From: a virus
Virus genome (UHGV): UHGV-0250286
Length of the DNA stretch: 12,747 nt
Direction: 5' to 3' (one strand)
The notes under the pieces were generated by a model. It did not search any database and had not been told where the DNA came from. It saw nothing but the letters and a program-made list of their open reading frames with translations. Position numbers and translations under genes: made by a program. The number at the start of each line of letters is the position of its first letter. The first letter of the stretch is position 1. Of the stretch, positions 2,372-12,557 are shown one piece after another.

Positions 2372-3321
2372 TGCTCCGCGATTATCTTGATGGTTGTGGC
2401 AGTAAACGCCGCCACATTTGACTGGATGGTTAACGTACTGCCATTTGTGGCAAGAAAGCCGTCTTTATCCACGCTGAAGAACGTAGCTAACAGGATGTTA
2501 TCGGTTGTTGTCGCCGAGTTGCGACTGCTTACCAGTGTGTCAGGAACAGATCCGGAAAAGGTTAGCTGCATTGACCTGTTTGCGGTTCCGCTGGGCCACG
2601 TCCCGACAATCGACAGCTTGAAGAACAGGGTTTTGTTCTCGTTGAAAACAACCATCTTGTTGTTATCAGTATCGAAGAATGGTGCCAACGTCCCGGATGA
2701 CGGCGTGAGCGTTTTCAGCAGGCTAACAAGGTTGGTCGGCGCTGTTGGAATGGTTACCGATACTCCTGAGTAAACAACCTCTGATTTCTTGCGCGTGGTG
2801 GCATACTCAAGCGCAGATATTCTTGTTGAGTGATCACCAACTGTGCTTTGTAGCGTCGAAATACTTCCCTCTGCCGCTGTGAGCCTGGTATCAAGTGCGT
2901 TGATATCGGTTGTATTCTGAGTTATTCGCGCATCATGGTTTGCTAACTCAGATTCATTGGCAGCAATTCGCGTCTCGTGATCAGCCAGCTCTGTTTCGGC
3001 AGCCGTAATCCTTGTTTCATGATCTGCAAGAGTGCTTTCCGCTGCTGCGATTCTATGTTCATGATTGACGAGAGTTGCTTCAGCAGCAGCAATTCTGGAT
3101 TCATGGTCTGCAAGGGTGACATCCTGCTCATCATTCTTCACCTGTGCATCATAAGCTCCCTTCCCTGCTTCGTTGGCCTTGTTAGCCACGTTACCAACAT
3201 CAGTACCCTGTGCGATAACGTACAGCAGATATGACTGCGAGAAGATATTGCGTGGAAGGACTGATGTGTCGAGTCGTGTAGCCTGAATGATTACCGGCTC
3301 ATTGAGATTCGAATCAGCCAT
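2368..3321 (-). CDS. tail needle (P22 gp26 family) with a C-terminal knob-type domain
   Basis: True start is [43 protein letters not shown]..., the conserved gp26 N-terminal domain. Its ATG (3319-3321) overlaps the gp10 stop. A central coiled-coil repeat region is followed by a ~150-aa Ser/Thr-rich C-terminal domain unlike the P22 gp26 C-terminus, resembling the knob seen in Sf6/HK620-type needles. The ORF track's 351-aa form includes an upstream extension I regard as spurious. Confidence 0.8.
2905..3114 (-). repeat. five imperfect 42-bp tandem repeats (14-aa repeats) in the tail needle coiled-coil region
   Basis: Protein shows [14 protein letters not shown] / [14 protein letters not shown] / [14 protein letters not shown] / [14 protein letters not shown] / [14 protein letters not shown]. 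The DNA shows recurring gcagcaattc/gcagccgtaatc/gctgcgattc blocks. Confidence 0.7.
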
Positions 3322-4748
3322 TACTCGATCCTTATCTGGCAGCCAGACAGAGTGACAGGTGACTTCGTGATAACGCGCAATTTGAAGCCGACATTTTTCC
3401 TGATGCGCCCGACTCGCTTCCACAAAACACGCTTGTCGTAAACGAACGGTTCATTCTGCTCAATCATCTGCTCACGACCGTAATTGATGCCATCAGTGGT
3501 TGCCGAGAGGAACAGGCGGTCGGCGTACTGAGCGACCCCCGTCGATGATTCCACCTCCAGATCAAAGCATCTGGCGTTATCTGCTTTGAAGAGTGGAGTA
3601 AACAGCAGGTGTTCTTGCTGTAGCCCATACTGGCTGCTGATGTCGAACTGCAATTTTCCGGTCACGGACTCCAGCTTATCGCCGCACGTTATCTGATTGC
3701 CTTCGTAAATGAAGTCGATAGCGCGGTACACATCGTCATACAGGCCTGTTTTCAGCACACACCATTGCGGACCATTGGCGCTTGAAGATGCGTCGTACAC
3801 AAGGACGTGACGCGAAAGATGGATAATCAGCAACTCATGAGCATCAAACCGCAACGATTCCATCACACCATCAGCCAGTTCATCAGCAGTGTAGGAGCGG
3901 AGGATTTTCTCAATGCTCGCGCTGGCGATTGGTGATACCTGACCGGAGCCGATGATGTATACAGACGGAGCACCTGTTGCCGGATTGCTGATAAACGCAT
4001 AGGAATCAGCAAACGGCGTTTTGCAGTAAGTTCCGGCAATGCCTTTCTGCACCATCAGTGATGGCTGTGCGACATACAAAGCGGCACCAACGGTGGTTGC
4101 CCCAGTCAGGGAAAAATATTCAATCGTCGATGAACCAAAGCAGACGATGAAGTCTCGCCATGTTCCGATGCCGAGGATACCGTCCGGCTGCGATTCTGCG
4201 CGATATTGTGCGCTGTAACGGTCAGGATGCGATTCGTCTTCAGGGTCAGTGATAAACCATGAATCCGTGCCGTCTTTTGACCACGCATAACGCCCACGTA
4301 AACGCGTAATGTCGCGAACCGAACCTAACTCATACTGAGTGAATCCGCTGTCTGTAGGCCAGTTTGAGACTGTTTTAACCGTTCCATCATAGCGATACTC
4401 GACCAGTTGACCATTAACGCCTACCGCCTGAGATGTTCGACCATGCGCCATTGATACGCGACCACTTCCGGCAACATCACCGACCTCGCTTTCGCCCTTA
4501 TACAACTTGCCACCGCAAACGCGATAAACAGCATTCTGCGCCATGTTGTACTCGACACCGCGCGATACACCATTCACATCAGAGCGTTTGGCAATGCCAG
4601 GGAATGAGCGAAGATATCCACTGCTGTTGAGGATTTCTTTGGGGGTTGCCAGCATATTCACTGGCAGATAGTCGATATAGTCGGCGTTTCGAAAGTCTTT
4701 GCCACCTTGAAATGATGATGGCTGAATGGCTTGGCGGTGATGTGTCAC
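3321..4748 (-). CDS. gp10-like head-completion/tail-hub protein; native first ~12 codons replaced at a rearrangement junction
   Basis: From [38 protein letters not shown]... to the C-terminal ...[11 protein letters not shown] the ORF matches the P22 gp10 family. Upstream of codon G(12) at about 4703 the reading frame continues into the reverse complement of a gp4 fragment ([15 protein letters not shown]), beginning with GTG at 4748 and no Shine-Dalgarno. The native N-terminus [20 protein letters not shown] is found instead on the plus strand at 5089-5151. Confidence 0.7.
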
Positions 4749-4807
4749 CTGGTATCAACGTTGGCTACATTTTCGCTGATGCAGATGTCGCTCCAGATCC
4801 GGGCGAT
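4678..4807. repeat. left junction block: 26-bp (4678-4703) plus 104-bp (4704-4807) segments whose exact reverse complements occur at 5125-5150 and 5151-5254
   Basis: I reverse-complemented both segments by hand and they match 26/26 and 104/104. 4678-4703 is tagtcggcgtttcgaaagtctttgcc; 4704-4807 runs accttgaaatgatgatggct...gatccgggcgat. Confidence 0.9.
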
Positions 4808-5089
4808 GAGCACGGTTTATCAAATAACGCTATCAATGCCGTCATTTTCAACCTTGCCTGCCGCATTGCTCCGGATTATGCGCTGGAAGCGTCTGCAAAA
4901 CTTATAACCACTGCCAGATACGGGAAAGAGAGACTCGTCAAACTGTCTGCAATGGACAGAGCAAAAGCCGCTAAATGTAAGTCCGGTTATCCAAACCGTA
5001 TGCCTGTTGGTAGTGGTAACCAGTTGGCGAAGTGGAACGGCTGGAATTACTTCCAGCGAAAGGAACCTTGCGATAACGGGAGCGAATAA
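4704..5089 (+). pseudogene. 3' portion of the gp4-like adaptor gene, inverted onto the plus strand
   Basis: Plus-strand frame encodes [127 protein letters not shown]. Joined to the minus-strand N-terminal fragment this gives a ~166-aa gp4-like protein. No Shine-Dalgarno ahead of this fragment. Confidence 0.75.
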
Positions 5090-5151
5090 TGCCGATTCAG
5101 CAACTTCCGCTTATGAAAGGTGTCGGCAAAGACTTTCGAAACGCCGACTAA
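5089..5151 (+). pseudogene. first 20 codons of the gp10-like gene, inverted onto the plus strand and detached from the gene body
   Basis: ATG at 5089-5091 overlaps the gp4 stop (TAATG) and encodes [20 protein letters not shown], then a stop. GKDFRNAD continues as YIDYLPVN only on the minus strand at about 4677. Confidence 0.75.
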
Positions 5152-5254
5152 TCGCCCGGATCTGGAGCGACATCTGCATCAGCGAAAATGTAGCCAACGT
5201 TGATACCAGGTGACACATCACCGCCAAGCCATTCAGCCATCATCATTTCAAGGT
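5125..5254. repeat. right junction block: 26-bp (5125-5150) and 104-bp (5151-5254) inverted copies of 4678-4703 and 4704-4807
   Basis: ggcaaagactttcgaaacgccgacta followed by atcgcccggatctggagcgacatc...catttcaaggt. Perfect reverse-complement identity to the left block, but the two sub-blocks are in swapped order, so this is not a simple palindrome. Confidence 0.9.
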
Positions 5255-5369
5255 CGTTGACGCCGTCTTCCATAGACTGCGGTTCGACATCGGTTAACGT
5301 GGCATTTGATGCCACACCGAGCTTACGTAATGCCGCAAGAACTAAATCACCCTTCGTTGTCAGGTTCAT
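5148..5369 (-). pseudogene. 5' portion of the gp4-like adaptor gene (73 codons), ending in a junction-created TAG
   Basis: ATG at 5367-5369 with an AGGCGG Shine-Dalgarno 6 nt upstream. Encodes [73 protein letters not shown], then TAG exactly at the 5150/5151 junction. The track's upstream [10 protein letters not shown]... extension is the hexanucleotide repeat read in another frame. Confidence 0.75.
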
Positions 5370-5595
5370 CTGCTGCCGCCTTAGGTTTTCGACCAGGCTT
5401 TTTACGCTGTTTTTCTTCTGGCTCTGGCTCTGGCTCTGGCTCTGGCTCTGCAACATCATTCAGAAGATTATCAGGATGTGCAAACCAGCCAGCATCCAGA
5501 TATTCCTGAAGCTCTTCGGCTTTCACGATTTCAAAGTCGTATCCAACGCCTTTCCATTTCTTCATGTCGCCATGACGAAAGATCATGTGTGTCAT
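5347..5595 (-). CDS. hypothetical small protein (82 aa) between the coat and adaptor genes, with an acidic (EP)5 repeat and a basic KKPGRKPK tail
   Basis: ATG at 5593-5595 with a GGAG Shine-Dalgarno 6 nt upstream, located just downstream of the post-coat terminator. Encodes [82 protein letters not shown]. Its 3' end overlaps the gp4 start by 23 nt. Sf6-type genomes carry a small ORF in this position; P22 itself, as I recall, does not. Confidence 0.55.
5417..5450. repeat. hexanucleotide microsatellite, (GCTCTG) x5 plus a partial unit
   Basis: tctg gctctg gctctg gctctg gctctg gctctg is read directly in the sequence. It encodes (EP)n in the 82-aa ORF on the minus strand. Confidence 0.9.
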
Positions 5596-5608
5596 GCTTG
5601 TCTCCAGA

Positions 5609-5632
5609 TAAAAAAGGGAGCCGAAGCTCCCT
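5609..5632 (-). terminator. rho-independent terminator immediately downstream of the coat gene
   Basis: Minus-strand RNA would read aGGGAGC-uucg-GCUCCCu followed by UUUUUU: a perfect 6-7 bp GC-rich stem, a UUCG tetraloop and a U-tract, 8 nt after the coat TGA stop. There is no T-tract in the plus-strand orientation. Confidence 0.75.
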
Positions 5633-5639
5633 CTGGTTA

Positions 5640-6935
5640 TCACGCAGTCTGGTTAGGCAGACCAACACCAATTGCCTCTGGTCGTACAGCACATGCTGAA
5701 TACCACACAGCAATACGGCACTTACCAGACAGAGTGTTGATATCACCCTGCGTTGCGAAGATGCCGTTAACACCAATACCTGGAATGCTGAAGGAAGAAG
5801 TTTTCATGCCAGCAAACAGTTCATGGGTTACCGGAATCGGCTGAGACAGCAGGCGGATTGAGTCATCAGCCCAGAACACGTTAGCGGTGGTTGTTGCCAC
5901 GTTCAGAACGTTTACCGGAGTGGTATTAGCAAGAGAGGTGTTTACGTTAGCGTAAGCCTTCTCTTCTTTTGTCAGTGACGCGTCATCCAGCGCAATCGGC
6001 TTCGGCGTGATTTCGATGTGAGTATTATCGATCACTCGGGTGATTGAGAAAGTCGCATCATCAGTCAGCACGTTCTTCGCCATCTGAGACAGGAATTTCA
6101 CACCAGTGAAGCTGATTTTGTCGCCGCGCTTAAATCCGGTGGTGGAGGATACGGTCACCGTTGCAACACGGTTGTCGACGTTCTCCTTGTTACCATCGGT
6201 ATCAAGGGTGTATGCCTGCGGCTTAAACTTCTGCGCTCCAGACACAGTTACACCAGTAGCGGTTGACTTGGTAACTGCCGGAAGTTTCGGTGAGCGAAGA
6301 ATTTCATCAAAGCCAGCAATCTGACGCTGAATAGTACCGTTGCGATACGCTTCTTCAGGAACGCGACCGAAGATGTCACCATCTACCAGGTTGCGGCCTG
6401 CTTTGCGGTAATCGTCAGGATTCAGGAAGTAACTGATGCCCATATCGCGGTTTAGCTCACGGGAGAACATCAGTCGCTCTGCATCAGACACAAAATCCCA
6501 TCCAGACAGGCCAGTAGATGGACCAATTGCGCGGGTATCGTGAACAACAAGCGAGCCCATTTCAGTTGCCTGTTTGGCAATTGCTGACTCAATGTTATTC
6601 GCCAGTTTTTTGGCGGATGCCTGGATGCGGCGACGGTAAGAACGCTCATCACGCAGGTCATCTGCACGAAGCTCGAAGAAATCGTTATCCGGATCGCCCA
6701 TGTTGCATTTCACGGAGAGTTCCAGAATCCCGGTTGCGTTGTCAGTTAAATCCCAGCCAGTCTGGGTTGGCGCTTCCTGCTCAACAGGCATCCACACGGT
6801 GTTGCTTGAACGCTGCATTGATTCTGCCGGAGGGGTGTATTTTGTCACTTTGGACGCCATTGGCGTCAGGTTCTGGACGGTTTCGATGATTTCATCCAGA
6901 GCATATGTGACCAGTTGACCTTCATTTAATGCCAT
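5640..6935 (-). CDS. major capsid (coat) protein, P22 gp5 family
   Basis: 431 aa. [27 protein letters not shown]...[14 protein letters not shown] is collinear with the P22 coat protein as I recall it ([20 protein letters not shown]...GVGLPGQTA). ATG overlaps the scaffold stop. Confidence 0.95.
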
Positions 6936-7846
6936 TATCGAATTCCTTTATTCAGTTGCGCCTTAAGCTTGCGGTACGTCTCTACATCCCCTTTGTTTGC
7001 TGCCGCTTCCATCTGCTTTTCAATCGCAGAGATATTTGCAGCAACAGCGTGTCCCTGAATGGGTTCATCAGGTAACGGGGCTTCTGAAACAGGCTTTGCT
7101 CGAGGCTTGAGAGTTAAACGTTCTGACAGTCGAGTGAGTTCAATCAGCGCGGATTGCCCGTCCATCGCCAGCAACTGGCGTGTTTTCTCAGGATTAGCAC
7201 CAAGGTGATACATGAGAGCAGCGGATTTCTCCGGGAAGAGGCGCATGATGTCGGCACCGACTGCTGGCGGCACCAGTTGCATGAATGCATCCTCTTTCTC
7301 CTGATAGTCAGGGATATTGAGCTTTTCCGCTGCGTCGTAGTGCTTACGGGCTGCCTCGACGTATTGCGCTGATTGCTGGGTGAACTCCTGAGTTTTGCGA
7401 CCCTGCTCGGCGACAGCCTGGCTTCGTGCGTCCATAGCCTTGATCTGCCATTCACTGTTTGCCTGCTGGAAGGCAGCCAGTGCGCGGCTCTGGTCATAGT
7501 CGTACTTAGCCAGTGCATCTTCGGAAAGATAATCGTTAGGGTCTGGTTGTTTTGGTAACTCAGGGTTCACCCGCAGGTGCTCCGGCAACTCTCCACGCTT
7601 AACCGCTTCCATCTGCTGCTCAAGCTCACGCTGGCGTTTGCGTTCGATGCGGCGACGGGCAAATTCAGCATTAGTTGCCGGGTCTTGTTTTGGTTTCTCA
7701 TCGTCTTTCAGGACAATCTCAAAGCCTTCTTCCTGACCTGCACTGTCGTTGGCATTATCGACAACTAAGCCATCAGCAGATGCCGCTGCATGATTGCCGG
7801 GCAGGGTTAATTCTTCAGAAGCCTGAATGTCGGTGGTTTGGTCCAT
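6935..7846 (-). CDS. scaffolding protein, P22 gp8 family
   Basis: 303 aa, highly charged and helical in composition, between portal and coat. Same length as P22 gp8. A GAGAGAG Shine-Dalgarno precedes the ATG. Confidence 0.93.
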
Positions 7847-7859
7847 GGTTAACTCTCTC

Positions 7860-10025
7860 TTATTGAGGTGTCTCGGCTACTCCGCCGGAGGGGATTTGAA
7901 CTTGACGCATAAGATTCGCGAAATCCATGCGTTGTGAATGAGTCTGGTCTGCATCTTTAAGAAGCAGCTCAGCGTTAGCACGAGCATCTTTGCTGCGCTG
8001 TTGCTGGAATTGAACTACGAGCTTGAGGTACTCACGCAGTTCTGCCTGCTTGTCGAGGTCCATATTGTTGAAGATTTCTGCAATCTTCGCGGCGTTGAGT
8101 TGGTTTTGGGCTTCAACCTTGGCGGCTTCAACCTGAATCTGCGCCTGTTGGTTCTCTGCCTTGAGCAATTCAGCCTGACCTTGCAGAAGGATACCCTGCG
8201 CCTGAATTTGCTCTGCTGATGGCTGCTGCGGCTGCTGTTGAGCCTGCTGTACCATCTCCATCTCTTCAGGTGTTTCTGGTTTCTTCAGCCCCATCATCAC
8301 CAGTTGCTTGTTCGCGTACTCTCGCATCATCTCGACGCCTTTACCGTCAAGCAGCGTGAAGTATTGCAGCATCAGCATCTGGAACTCTGGAGTACCTTGC
8401 GGAACCTTGGTGAGCAACTCCTGAATCTCTGCGCGGTTCTGTTCCTTCATGCTCTGGAAGGATGGTCCAACTCCTATATAGCACTCGTAGCGACCGCGAA
8501 TGTCGTTGAGTGTGACCACATTACCGGACTGGTAATCGACAACTTGCGCGTAGAGTTGAACGTCTTTCTCGCTTCCATCTTCAAGTGTCAGCGTTACATG
8601 ACGAGGGATGTCATAAATATCATTGACCATTGAGGCATAAATCTCGCCATCACGCCGCATTGCGGTAGCCAGGTTATCCTGAAACACGTATGTCTCAAGG
8701 TCTGACCGCATGTTCAGTTGATTGACGGTATCGAAAGAGACCTGAGAGTTTGCTGCCTGTGCATCCACGCCAAGACTAGCCACCTCTTTCACTGCGTTGG
8801 TGGCAGCCTCAAGCATGTAAGCGTTGGCTTGCGGCACTTCAGGGTTTTCCATGTAGGAGATTGGACCAATCGGCAGGTCGTTACCGTTTTCATCAGTCCT
8901 GTTCTGGAGATAGTACGGATAGTCATCATTTCCACCGTACATGTATTCGTAGCCTTCGATTTGCTCAGGGAAGAAGGTCGGTTTCTTCTTCGGTGAACGA
9001 CCAACAATATCGGCGTTGAATGACATGATCATGTTACGAAGGCGTTGACCGTCTTTCGTCAGCCTTACCACTCCTTCGTAGCACTCCTTGTCACCAGCGA
9101 ATGACCATTCGCCATACACTGGAACGATTGGAATATGCTCTCCTGCTATCTTCTCGCGGTCTTTCAGTATCTGTGTGCAGGTGATGATCGACTTATACAC
9201 ACGCCGACGCTTCACCTTGCGCTCTGCTACCTTAATGAATCCACGATTAGCCAGGTCGTCGATGACGTCTTTAATATCCTGCTGGTAATAGCTGACCGGC
9301 TCACCTGTCAGCGGGTCGCGGTAGATGAAGACCTTCTCTTTCTTCTCTTCTATCTCGTAATACTCAGCGACGTAGACGACATCATTCGATACCCACGGAA
9401 ACAGCCATGTGTCGTTCGGATTCTGGAAAGATGGCAAGGTGTCCGGATCAATACCGTAATCCTCTGCGAACTCTTTCCAGCCATTGCGTGACAAGGCGTT
9501 AATCACCGTGCAGTGCTTAGCGTCGCTCTTATCCATCTGCTTGCTGTTGGCGTCCCATATGACGTGTGAGCAGGCCTCATGGATTGGCAGGCGTCTGATT
9601 ACCTGATTGTTGCTTGTTGGATCGTTGTCTTCGTACTGTGTGACCAGACGCCATGCACCAACGCCGGACTCTATCTGCTCACGAACGCCAACGTTAACGG
9701 CAATCTTTGCCGTGTTATGGCGCATATCAGTACGATACATCCCCATCAACACATCGGCTGCATCAGGATTAGCGCCGTCTTTGGGTCGGAAGAGAACGTC
9801 GATAGGGTTCCGGCGCATCTCTGCGACCAGTTTCCTGACCACTGGGCGAACAACATCGAATTGTCCGCGATATTGCAGGGTGGTGTAGTTTGATAGCCAG
9901 TCATCCCATTGCGACACTCGGCTAAAAAACAGGTCATTTGTCGCCTCGGTTCTGGCTTCATCGCTCGCCATCCAGTCTGCGTCAAACTTACACAGAATGG
10001 AATTGAGTCTGTTTTCGTCGGCCAT
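7860..10025 (-). CDS. portal protein, P22 gp1 family
   Basis: 721 aa. [44 protein letters not shown]... and the C-terminal ...[10 protein letters not shown] match the P22 portal family. The Gln-rich C-terminal barrel region is present. Confidence 0.95.
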
Positions 10026-11525
10026 TTAAGTTCTCCGTGCGATGGGCCTGATTGGGGCTGGTATCTTTTTCTCTTTTGGTTTTTTGATGTCGCGCATCAT
10101 TTTGGCGAAGCGGCGCATCATGTATGCATAGCGAACGGCTGAGAGAACGTCGTCGTTAAGCTTGACGATCTTCCCGTTTTCATCACGGTGATAGAGGCGG
10201 AACTCCTCAAAGAATGGCTCACAGGTGTTGAATACTTTGAAGCGACCATCGAGCATCATGTCGCGCAATTCAGTGATGCCAGGCTCCACAGCATTACCGC
10301 CATCAGGCCATGTCGCATGCTCCTGCAACATCATAAAACCAGCGTCCGCGTACTGCCCTTTGAGCTGCTCACCGCCGCCCTTCTCATGCTGGTTTCCGTC
10401 ATGAGGCCATGCGGTTGGCACTTTATGCGCCCATGATTTAACAGCTCCCCATGCCTGAACAGCTGTTTTTTCTTTCGCCTTCCACACGCGTGAAACGTAG
10501 ATTGTGTCTGCGTCCTTATCCCACCAAAGCTGAACCTGCGCCTGTGGGTGATCCCATCCGAAATCCATCCCACCAATTACGTAGAAGTGATCAGGACACT
10601 CGAACGGCTGACACTTAATAGTCTCTTCCGGTATCTGGAAGATTCGACCACTACCCATCGTAGGAATACCGCGAGCACGCGCCTCTCTCTCATGCTCGGG
10701 ATAGGATGCGATGATTTGCTCTTTCTGCTCGTCGGTGTAGTGCTCTGCGTCATAGATGGTCATGTTGACCACTTTCTGCGACTTGCTGGGATTCTTCAGG
10801 AACTTGGTAACAACGTCAGACATCCCCATCAGCGGGGTAAACGTCAGAATTGAGAATTGCCCGTATTTGTTGGTACGGGTAAGACCTTCGCCATAAATGC
10901 TGTATGGTGGCTCTTCGTCAAACCACACGCCGTGGATTGTGTCACCCTGCCAGCGAGCGCGGCCTTGCGAGTATGGTTTGAAGTAGCAGATTGAAATGCC
11001 ATCTTCAACGCCATCAGCCGTGTGATGCTTAACCAGAAGATGATCAACAAGGTTCGGAAAGAAAGGAGACTTCTTCCAGCTAATGATGTCCTCTTTCGGT
11101 ATAGAACCGTAGCCCGGTTCATCATTCTCTTCAATACGACCGCACAGGATGCGTTGAGTCGTTTTGGTTACCGTCTCGTTTGTCTCGCCACCAATCCAGA
11201 AGACAACAGGCTCATAGAAACGCTTACCTTTCCACTCCCCACCATATTTACCATCAGCAGGATAGCCTTTTGTGCCCGGATAACGCCCTGTAAGGTGAAA
11301 CGCGACTTCAGCAGCACCAGTAAATGACTTACCAAGCTGGTTACCAGCCATAAAACAGCGCTCTGGATAGTCATGCCCGGCGTCGATGAACTCACGCTGT
11401 TTGCTGTATGGCGTAAATTCATATAGCAGGTGTGTGTTCCGGTAGTTCTCTTCTTCTTCGAGTAGCTCGAGCAATTCGATTTGCTCTTCGTCGCTCAGGT
11501 TATCAAGAATCGCGTCCAGTTCCAC
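10026..11525 (-). CDS. terminase large subunit, P22 gp2 family
   Basis: 499 aa, the same length as P22 gp2. Has a Walker A-like motif ([10 protein letters not shown]) and a nuclease-type C-terminal half. Stop TAA abuts the portal ATG (TTAAATG) with a GGAGAA Shine-Dalgarno. Confidence 0.95.
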
Positions 11526-11991
11526 GGTTGAATAGCTCCTTGATACGAGAGCGTCGCTTATCGCGATCTCCCTTATCAGGTGTCACGTCTTCAACTTGCG
11601 ACTGCTCTTTGAGGCCCAAATCACGGGCGATGATGTTAGCGTTGAGAAGGTCAGCGGCTGCGCCAGAGAATTTCTGGTCGTAGATGATGTCTTCCGCTCG
11701 TGATGTGACGTCAGAAAAACCTTCCATTGACCGGAAGGTTCCCCATGTTTGCCTGGTGATATCAAGGAAGGTACACAATCCTGAAATAGTCATGGCTCGC
11801 ATCTTAGGGACATTAGCCTTAATTATTTCTCCCTGATATGAAAATACCTTACCCTCCCATAGCGGGTTATCATCAGCCCACTCGAAGTATTCACAACAAG
11901 CTGCCCACAGCGCCTCAGGCGATTCGAATTTAGGATTTCGCCCATGACTACTGCGGGCCTCCCAAAATCGGTTGCCCTTTGGTGCTGCCAT
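11503..11991 (-). CDS. terminase small subunit, P22 gp3 family
   Basis: [38 protein letters not shown]...[14 protein letters not shown], 162 aa from the second ATG (Shine-Dalgarno AGTGAG 6 nt upstream). The track ORF begins two codons earlier (MNM..., 11997). Overlaps the large terminase gene by 23 nt. Confidence 0.9.
11701..11724 (-). other. candidate pac (packaging initiation) site, diverged from the P22 pac sequence
   Basis: Minus strand reads gaaggtttttctgacgtcacatca (codons EGFSDVTS) at the position in the small terminase gene where the P22 pac site GAAGATTTATCTGAAGTCGTTA (codons EDLSEVV) lies, as I recall it. Several positions match (GAAG.TTT.TCTGA.GTC). Confidence 0.35.
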
Positions 11992-12026
11992 ATTCATCTC
12001 ACTTAATCGTTATTTCAGGTTGAGCA

Positions 12027-12269: not shown

Positions 12270-12351
12270 TGTTGGCTCAAGATTCTTTGTGGTGGCGGAC
12301 TGATGGAAAGACATCCGCTGAATCGATGATAAACAAGTGGAAGAGGTTGCG

Positions 12352-12522
12352 ATGGTTTCCGTGAACAAAGATCCGAAGGAAGGCGTTGAATACATCACTG
12401 GTGCTGATGGTGTGAAAAGACCAATGGCTTATTACAAAGCGGCTGAAGAGAGGGCAAGAATAGAAAATCCCCCTAAATGCGGATCATTTTTCGACATGCT
12501 GGACCTTCAATGGAAGTTGTGA
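12352..12522 (+). CDS. hypothetical small protein (56 aa) on the strand opposite the late operon
   Basis: ATG at 12352 with a strong GGAAGAGG Shine-Dalgarno 5 nt upstream. Encodes MVSVNKDPKEGVEYITGADGVKRPMAYYKAAEERARIENPPKCGSFFDMLDLQWKL. A terminator-like hairpin follows 11 nt after the stop. Confidence 0.4.
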   Translation: MVSVNKDPKEGVEYITGADGVKRPMAYYKAAEERARIENPPKCGSFFDMLDLQWKL

Positions 12523-12532
12523 ACAACTAACA

Positions 12533-12557
12533 GGTCGCTCAGGCGGCCTTTTTTATT
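12533..12557 (+). terminator. candidate rho-independent terminator for the plus-strand small ORF
   Basis: GGUCGC-ucag-GCGGCC (6-bp stem with one G.U pair) followed by UUUUUUAUU. The minus-strand orientation has no U-tract, so it would not stop late-operon transcription. Confidence 0.35.

Follow-up and report, generated by a model that had tools for sequence, protein, structure and literature searches.

The window analysed here is a 12,747-nucleotide stretch of the virus genome UHGV-0250286, and it carries the late operon, for virion assembly, of a P22-like E. coli phage or prophage. The nearest named phages are Louie, Dewey, HZ41, IME10, and APC_JM3.2, at 95-97% nucleotide identity. According to ORF calls and profile searches, all late genes of the window are encoded on the minus strand. 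The small terminase (11997..11506; phrog_606), large terminase (ORF 11525..10026), and portal (ORF 10025..7860) are followed by the scaffold (7846..6938; PF09306) and the 431-aa coat, or major head, protein (5643..6935; PF11651 P22_CoatProtein, E 1.1e-165; phrog_283). By sequence and ORF end, the coat gene stops at a TGA (5642..5640), with an in-frame TAA directly behind it (5639..5637). Then come a GC-rich hairpin, an 82-aa ORF that carries a Glu-Pro repeat and has no known function (5350..5595; phrog_1175, E 8.9e-37), gp4 in fragments (PF11650), gp10 (4748..3324; PF11134), and, downstream of gp10, more needle and ejection genes. The low-copy portal and terminase genes are thus upstream of the hairpin on the same transcript, and the essential gp4, gp10, and needle genes are downstream of it. 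At 44 nt, the gap that holds the hairpin is the widest between late genes in the window; the others measure 0-29 nt or are overlaps.

The first gene after the hairpin is the 82-aa ORF, whose ATG at 5595 is preceded at a distance of 6 nt by a Shine-Dalgarno GGAG (5602..5605, minus strand, read from the sequence) and whose N-terminal part matches phrog_3769. It occupies the position of the small ORFs known as epsilon34 gene 6, P22 orf69, and Sf6 gene 6, and the P22 version has been called non-essential (PMC2629481). An earlier sequence-only reading of the window had placed the hairpin between the coat gene and the head-completion genes further down. The gene that comes next is this ORF of non-essential type and not gp4.

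The ORF is itself variable. Its Glu-Pro repeat is encoded by a coding-strand (GAGCCA)n repeat at 5417-5450, with five copies in the window. The repeat is hypervariable, with 3-15 copies in 53 of 80 close relatives; a pattern search found no run of three or more in the other 27. Among relatives with 99% identical coat genes, the downstream gene (window 5350-5605) exists as two alleles. The short allele, of about 82 aa (ATGACACACATG...), occurs at 64 loci, and the other (ATGAGCGTAATG...) at 16 loci (L009, L018, L027, and others, 2820-3350), where about 510 nt pass until homology with the window resumes. The divergence between alleles begins right after the U tract of the hairpin, which makes the hairpin a mosaic boundary.

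Several other features of the window were noted. A 451-bp segment within the gene for gp4, the head-tail adaptor (4704-5154), is inverted relative to Louie, to all 80 IMG/VR relatives, and to every complete E. coli genome with a match; of 910 such genomes, none spans 80% or more of window positions 4560-5400. The junctions of the inversion (4678-5254) are duplicated as inverted repeats, 4704-4810 with 5148-5254 (107 nt, 99%) and 4678-4703 with 5125-5150 (26 nt). As a result of the inversion, gp4 is split into an N-terminal part on the minus strand (5369..5151) and a C-terminal part on the plus strand (4646..5086). It probably arose in the assembly, or else through a template switch private to this genome, which would leave the phage inactive. 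In Louie, an HNH endonuclease gene on the opposite strand lies between scaffold and coat (L001, 5268-5795), whereas the window has no HNH gene there, and its scaffold stop and coat start overlap by 1 nt. At the far end, the plus strand carries a 61-aa ORF (12337-12549; phrog_5425, E 6e-40) antisense to the late operon, followed by a good plus-strand terminator (AGGTCGC-TCAG-GCGGCCT, then TTTTTATT; 12532-12549). The arrangement suggests a moron, located upstream of the terminase genes and transcribed on its own.

Anatomy and conservation of the post-coat hairpin

Past the last coat codon, the minus strand reads UGA UAA CC AGA GGGAGC UUCG GCUCCC UUUUUU AUCU GGAG ACAAGC AUG. The core stem pairs 5631..5626 (GGGAGC) with 5621..5616 (GCUCCC) in six perfect pairs, five of them GC, and closes a UUCG tetraloop (5622..5625) with a C-G pair. 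The 5' arm (5626..5634) includes an optional extension, AGA (5634..5632), and the 3' arm (5616..5621) runs into the U tract UUUUUUAUCU (5606..5615), which consists of U6 at 5615..5610 followed by A, U, C, and U. The first three of these U can also lengthen the stem, which extends to nine pairs when AGA pairs with UUU at 5615..5613 through A-U and G-U pairs. The distance from the coat stop is 8 nt to the core stem and 5 nt to the extended stem. Both stem and loop fall within the range of Rho-independent terminators (stem of about 5-14 bp, loop of 3-8 nt), and UUUUUUAU abuts the core stem on the coding (minus) strand, as the U tract of an intrinsic terminator does. The sequence-only reading had located the element at 5609-5632, with a UUCG loop and a U tract, 8 nt after the coat stop; reading the sequence again bears this out, the distance being that to the core stem.

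Folding and scanning agree with this anatomy. The folding-energy calculation that had been proposed as a check gave -10.8 kcal/mol for the core hairpin and -14.4 kcal/mol for the extended one. For the 61-nt context, the value is -21.1 kcal/mol (z = -3.1), equalled by one of 200 shuffles. In a terminator scan, the hairpin was the top match and the sole convincing one on the coding strand, the other two minus-strand matches being weak 5-pair stems within genes. Taken together, anatomy, scan, and folding confirm that an element shaped like an intrinsic terminator lies on the coding strand right after the coat gene. The loose form of the scan was not enriched over shuffles (10 matches found against 12.4 expected), so the significance of the hairpin rests on a strict motif, on position, and on conservation. 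The strict motif (six perfect pairs, at least five GC, a loop of 3-6 nt, and at least 7 T in the next 9), defined only after the site had been seen, has a single match in the window, at the hairpin, against an expectation of 0.008 per dinucleotide-shuffled window on both strands. An Rfam scan of the whole window returned no family at the gathering score. A bidirectional terminator was considered and rejected; the plus-strand version has no T tract, and the element is consequently unidirectional.

Among 80 IMG/VR relatives with 99-100% identical coat proteins, the 6-bp core stem is invariant (80/80). The loop is UUCG in 76, UUCU in three, and UUUG in one, and the tail is U7, U6, U5, U4C, or GU5. 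At least four U lie within 1 nt of the stem throughout; they follow it directly in 79 relatives, the remaining one (L040) having a G and then U5. The codons next to the hairpin differ among the same 80 relatives.

The comparison was extended to distant relatives through a tblastn spread search of phage records, from which a sample was fetched with coats 22-100% identical at the amino acid level. The 17 names compared reduce to 15 distinct sequences, because Louie equals the window and HK620 equals Sf6. A GC hairpin stands right after the coat stop in 14 of these 15 sequences with P22-type coats, and 13 of the 14 hairpins have a U-rich tail. The hairpin of Vibrio phage PVA1 has a poor U tract, and Ralstonia phage Hennie shows no hairpin in a gap of just 14 nt. 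Stem sequences vary widely (GGGAGC, AGGGGC, AAGGGGC, GGGCGGC, GGGGCC, GGGGAGCC, GGCCAAG, and others), and the 3' arm carries compensatory changes relative to P22, Sf6, the Vibrio phages, and lambda. In an alignment of ten representatives, 91% of cells are paired, six of nine pairs are altered on both sides, and 0 of 500 shuffles match; the alignment was anchored by hand at the loops and includes sequences that are not homologous, which biases it towards structure, and it illustrates covariation rather than proving it. Judged by these comparisons, the hairpin and its U tract are under selection, since both persist after the coat gene even in phages that have diverged widely. Termination requires a U tract, whereas blocking an exonuclease does not. 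Its conservation therefore argues for real terminator activity.

RNA levels and expected read-through

RNA data are available for BTP1, a P22-like prophage with high spontaneous induction for which a TPM table covers 17 conditions (Owen et al. 2020, PMC7067206 supplement). Its own hairpin, AGGGGC-UUCG-GCCCCU-UUCUUAUUU, has a weaker U tract than that of the window. In the reanalysed TPM, which are low, averaged over a lysogen population with spontaneous induction, and unable to separate termination from decay, RNA is lower for the gene after coat than for coat itself in 16 of the 17 conditions (median log2 -0.76, Wilcoxon p = 5e-5). The drop amounts to 1.7-fold at the median and to 1.9-fold in the six conditions of highest late expression; in these six, scaffold and coat reach about 29 TPM, compared with 18 TPM for portal and 20 TPM for large terminase. 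A comparable drop occurs from gp10 to gp26 (median log2 -0.89, about 1.9-fold), where no hairpin is known. The equal size of this second drop means that the two-fold step is not specific evidence for the hairpin, and the BTP1 data fit a modest 3'-end effect without being specific to it. The proposal that a partial terminator attenuates all late genes downstream is partly supported: RNA is lower after coat, by a step of only 1.7-1.9-fold.

Among the ncRNAs in the BTP1 supplement, none ends at the coat terminator. One candidate ncRNA there, STnc6020, lies inside the BTP1 gp4 gene (S. Typhimurium D23580, 397372-397660), at 23-200 TPM compared with about 10 TPM for the gp4 mRNA. A literature search found no 3'-end mapping, Northern blot, or reporter assay for the hairpin or its homologues, nor any specific discussion of the site in P22-like phages, and neither the text nor the supplements of a P22 RNA-seq paper (PMC8575938) give values by gene or by base.

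In its native setting, the hairpin is expected to be leaky, an expectation that carries over to this site what other terminators show of Q and the ribosome. Polymerase modified by Q resists downstream terminators. The lambdoid late operons of P22-like phages depend on Q antitermination (PMC2629481), and Louie, the closest isolate, carries a Q-like antiterminator gene upstream of its lysis and late genes; leakiness would follow because such a polymerase reads the late operon. It would also follow because the stem begins 5-8 nt past the stop of a heavily translated coat gene, where a trailing ribosome can block folding. For lambda tR2 in E. coli, termination is "almost fully repressed" at a short distance from the stop codon (PMC4824070). 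Shifting the stop to a distance of 5 bp cut its efficiency from about 90% to below 10%; more than about 30 bp was required for full efficiency, and the effect disappeared once translation was uncoupled (PMC4824070). Leakiness would further follow because essential genes lie beyond the hairpin and there is no promoter-like site nearby. A scan of the window found no such site near 5600, and together with the essential gp4, gp10, and needle genes that follow, this also led to rejection of an operon-end terminator with a restart promoter.

The spacing between stop and stem varies by phage group. It is 2-8 nt in eight of nine distinct sequences from P22-like podoviruses, Vibrio phages, lambda, and HK97, the ninth being Vibrio phage 1.275.O with about 14 nt. 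In the siphoviruses Sortsne, Kc166B, C130_2, sortregn, and ST231, the spacing is 20-33 nt. Given the ribosome-occlusion data for tR2 (PMC4824070), these two spacing classes may differ in terminator efficiency. By the same reasoning, the element might be a ribosome-gated terminator, which would act only on transcripts with no ribosome close behind in the coat cistron; this idea is improbable. If the short spacing were selected, transcription of the downstream genes would be coupled to translation of coat, and the hairpin would serve as a dosage or quality-control device on top of Q antitermination.

Weighing the explanations

The reading favoured here, to which a probability of roughly 0.6 is assigned, is that the element is the conserved post-coat hairpin of P22-like and lambdoid phages, acting as a leaky terminator and as a hairpin that protects 3' ends, with translation doing most of the stoichiometric work. 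A minority of transcripts would probably end at the U tract, and those read-through transcripts that are cut downstream could be trimmed back to the hairpin. By either route, the hairpin would shield the head-gene message at its 3' end against 3' exonucleases, for a net outcome of about two-fold more scaffold and coat RNA than downstream RNA. Larger differences in protein copy number would then arise from translation initiation. The P22 virion contains about 415 copies of coat, at most 12 of gp4, gp10, and gp26, and 12 of portal. A two-fold step is too small for a ratio of about 415 to at most 12, and low-copy portal and terminase are encoded upstream; most of the ratio must consequently be set by translation. 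For the lambda late genes, work by Sampson and colleagues from 1988 is reported to have concluded the same. The claim that the hairpin controls the stoichiometry of coat and scaffold versus gp4, gp10, and gp26 is overstated on the same two grounds, the small step and the upstream low-copy genes.

That claim in its full form would have most late transcripts stop after the coat gene, with termination as the main device behind the ratio. A canonical hairpin with a U6 tail, a U tract kept across relatives, and the drop in BTP1 RNA after coat would all suit it, and T7 offers a precedent in balancing its late genes with an inefficient terminator (PMC9163698). It is improbable all the same, since the BTP1 step is just 1.7-1.9-fold, the portal and terminase genes share the transcript upstream, the late operon is driven by Q-type antitermination (PMC2629481), and a spacing of 5-8 nt predicts strong repression by the ribosome. 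These last two points, by suppressing termination, would favour the opposite extreme, in which nothing terminates and the hairpin blocks 3'-to-5' exonucleases after endonucleolytic cleavage, as REP and puf hairpins do, leaving a longer-lived scaffold and coat segment. Scaffold and coat RNA exceed that of both upstream and downstream genes in the BTP1 conditions of high expression, as a stable processed segment would; the P22 record says only 'stem_loop' and compares it to HK97 and lambda, and the hairpins of lambda and PVA1 have poor U tracts. What makes a pure stability element rather unlikely is the U-rich tail, which 13 of 14 hairpins after P22-type coats and the close relatives retain and which an exonuclease block does not need.

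The hairpin could instead matter outside late transcription, as a safety device that stops polymerase not modified by Q, whether stray, from internal promoters, in the lysogen, or early in infection, so that head-completion and ejection genes stay silent with little late effect. Intrinsic terminators are fully active on unmodified polymerase, and the element is found in temperate phages. However, hairpins with even longer U tracts also follow coat in Sortsne, C130_2, sortregn, and ST231, presumably virulent siphoviruses. Ribosome occlusion would also affect stray transcripts if they are translated, and this role is very unlikely even though dRNA-seq places four coding-strand promoters in the BTP1 capsid cluster (PMC7067206). 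Lastly, the element might have no regulatory role, being a chance palindrome or simply a conserved stretch that links two modules and acts as a joint for recombination. The two downstream alleles, which diverge right after the U tract behind a coat gene conserved at 99%, are what such a joint would leave. Yet the strict motif is expected only 0.008 times per window, and position and structure are kept with compensatory changes across coats of 22-100% identity and in lambda and HK97, which makes this account scarcely credible.

Comparison with known systems

The hairpin is already known, having been annotated in curated phage records since about 2001. Sf6 (AF547987) carries it as the regulatory feature 't coat' (6147-6173), HK620 (AF335538) as 'tGP5' (25827-25853), and P22 (BK000583) as a stem_loop (6102-6119) that the record likens to those of HK97 and lambda. 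The HK97 counterpart is labelled "terminator, putative" right after gene 5, and in lambda, AUGGCCC-UUCG-GGGCCAU lies 2 nt past the stop of gene E. The earlier interpretation is accordingly right in kind, overstated in degree, and not new. What the window confirms is a familiar design rule, namely that late operons of tailed phages put a terminator-like hairpin right after the major capsid gene, and it illustrates that the form of a terminator is no proof of its strength. The conserved short spacing between stop and hairpin in temperate phages poses a small question on transcription-translation coupling.

The layout of the window is that of 't coat' and 'tGP5', with the coat stop at 5640, the hairpin at 5634..5613, and the ATG of the 82-aa ORF at 5595, on the late-operon strand. 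In Sf6, HK620, and P22, the hairpin stands 4-5 nt past the coat stop, and, as in the window, a small ORF of non-essential type comes between it and the gene for the gp4 homologue; a GC stem of 6-7 bp, a 4-nt loop, a U-rich tail, the operon, and the gene order are shared. The stems differ (GGGAGC in the window, AGGGGC in P22, AAGGGGC in Sf6 and HK620), as do the loops (UUCG in the window, UGCG in P22, UUAC in Sf6), and the U tract is longer in the window (U6) than in P22 (U3CU3). The coats of Sf6 and HK620 share only about 25% amino acid identity with that of the window.

Lambda, in the gap between E and FI, and HK97, between gp5 and gp6, likewise have a GC hairpin 2-4 nt after the stop of the capsid gene, in a Q-antiterminated late operon with head-completion genes next, and the lambda loop is also UUCG. 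Their coat genes, in contrast, are unrelated in sequence to that of the window, and their U tracts are poorer (lambda tail UGUUUCUC, HK97 tail UUUUAACG). T-phi of T7 is an incomplete terminator placed, like the window hairpin, right after the gene for the most abundant structural protein, major capsid gene 10. This inefficient terminator is generally read as balancing the expression of downstream virion genes (PMC9163698, citing T7 work). T-phi, whose activity has been measured, differs in acting on T7 RNA polymerase, whereas the window hairpin would be met by host polymerase carrying a Q-type antiterminator.

A further set of counterparts consists of operon hairpins. The REP sequences in malEFG and the hairpins of the puf operon and papBA are intercistronic stabilisers, generally without a U tract, and are not terminators. 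Where such a hairpin follows the gene whose product is most abundant, the mRNA segment upstream of it lives longer, and expression from one operon becomes unequal. The window hairpin resembles these stabilisers in position, standing, as they do, after the gene for the most abundant product.
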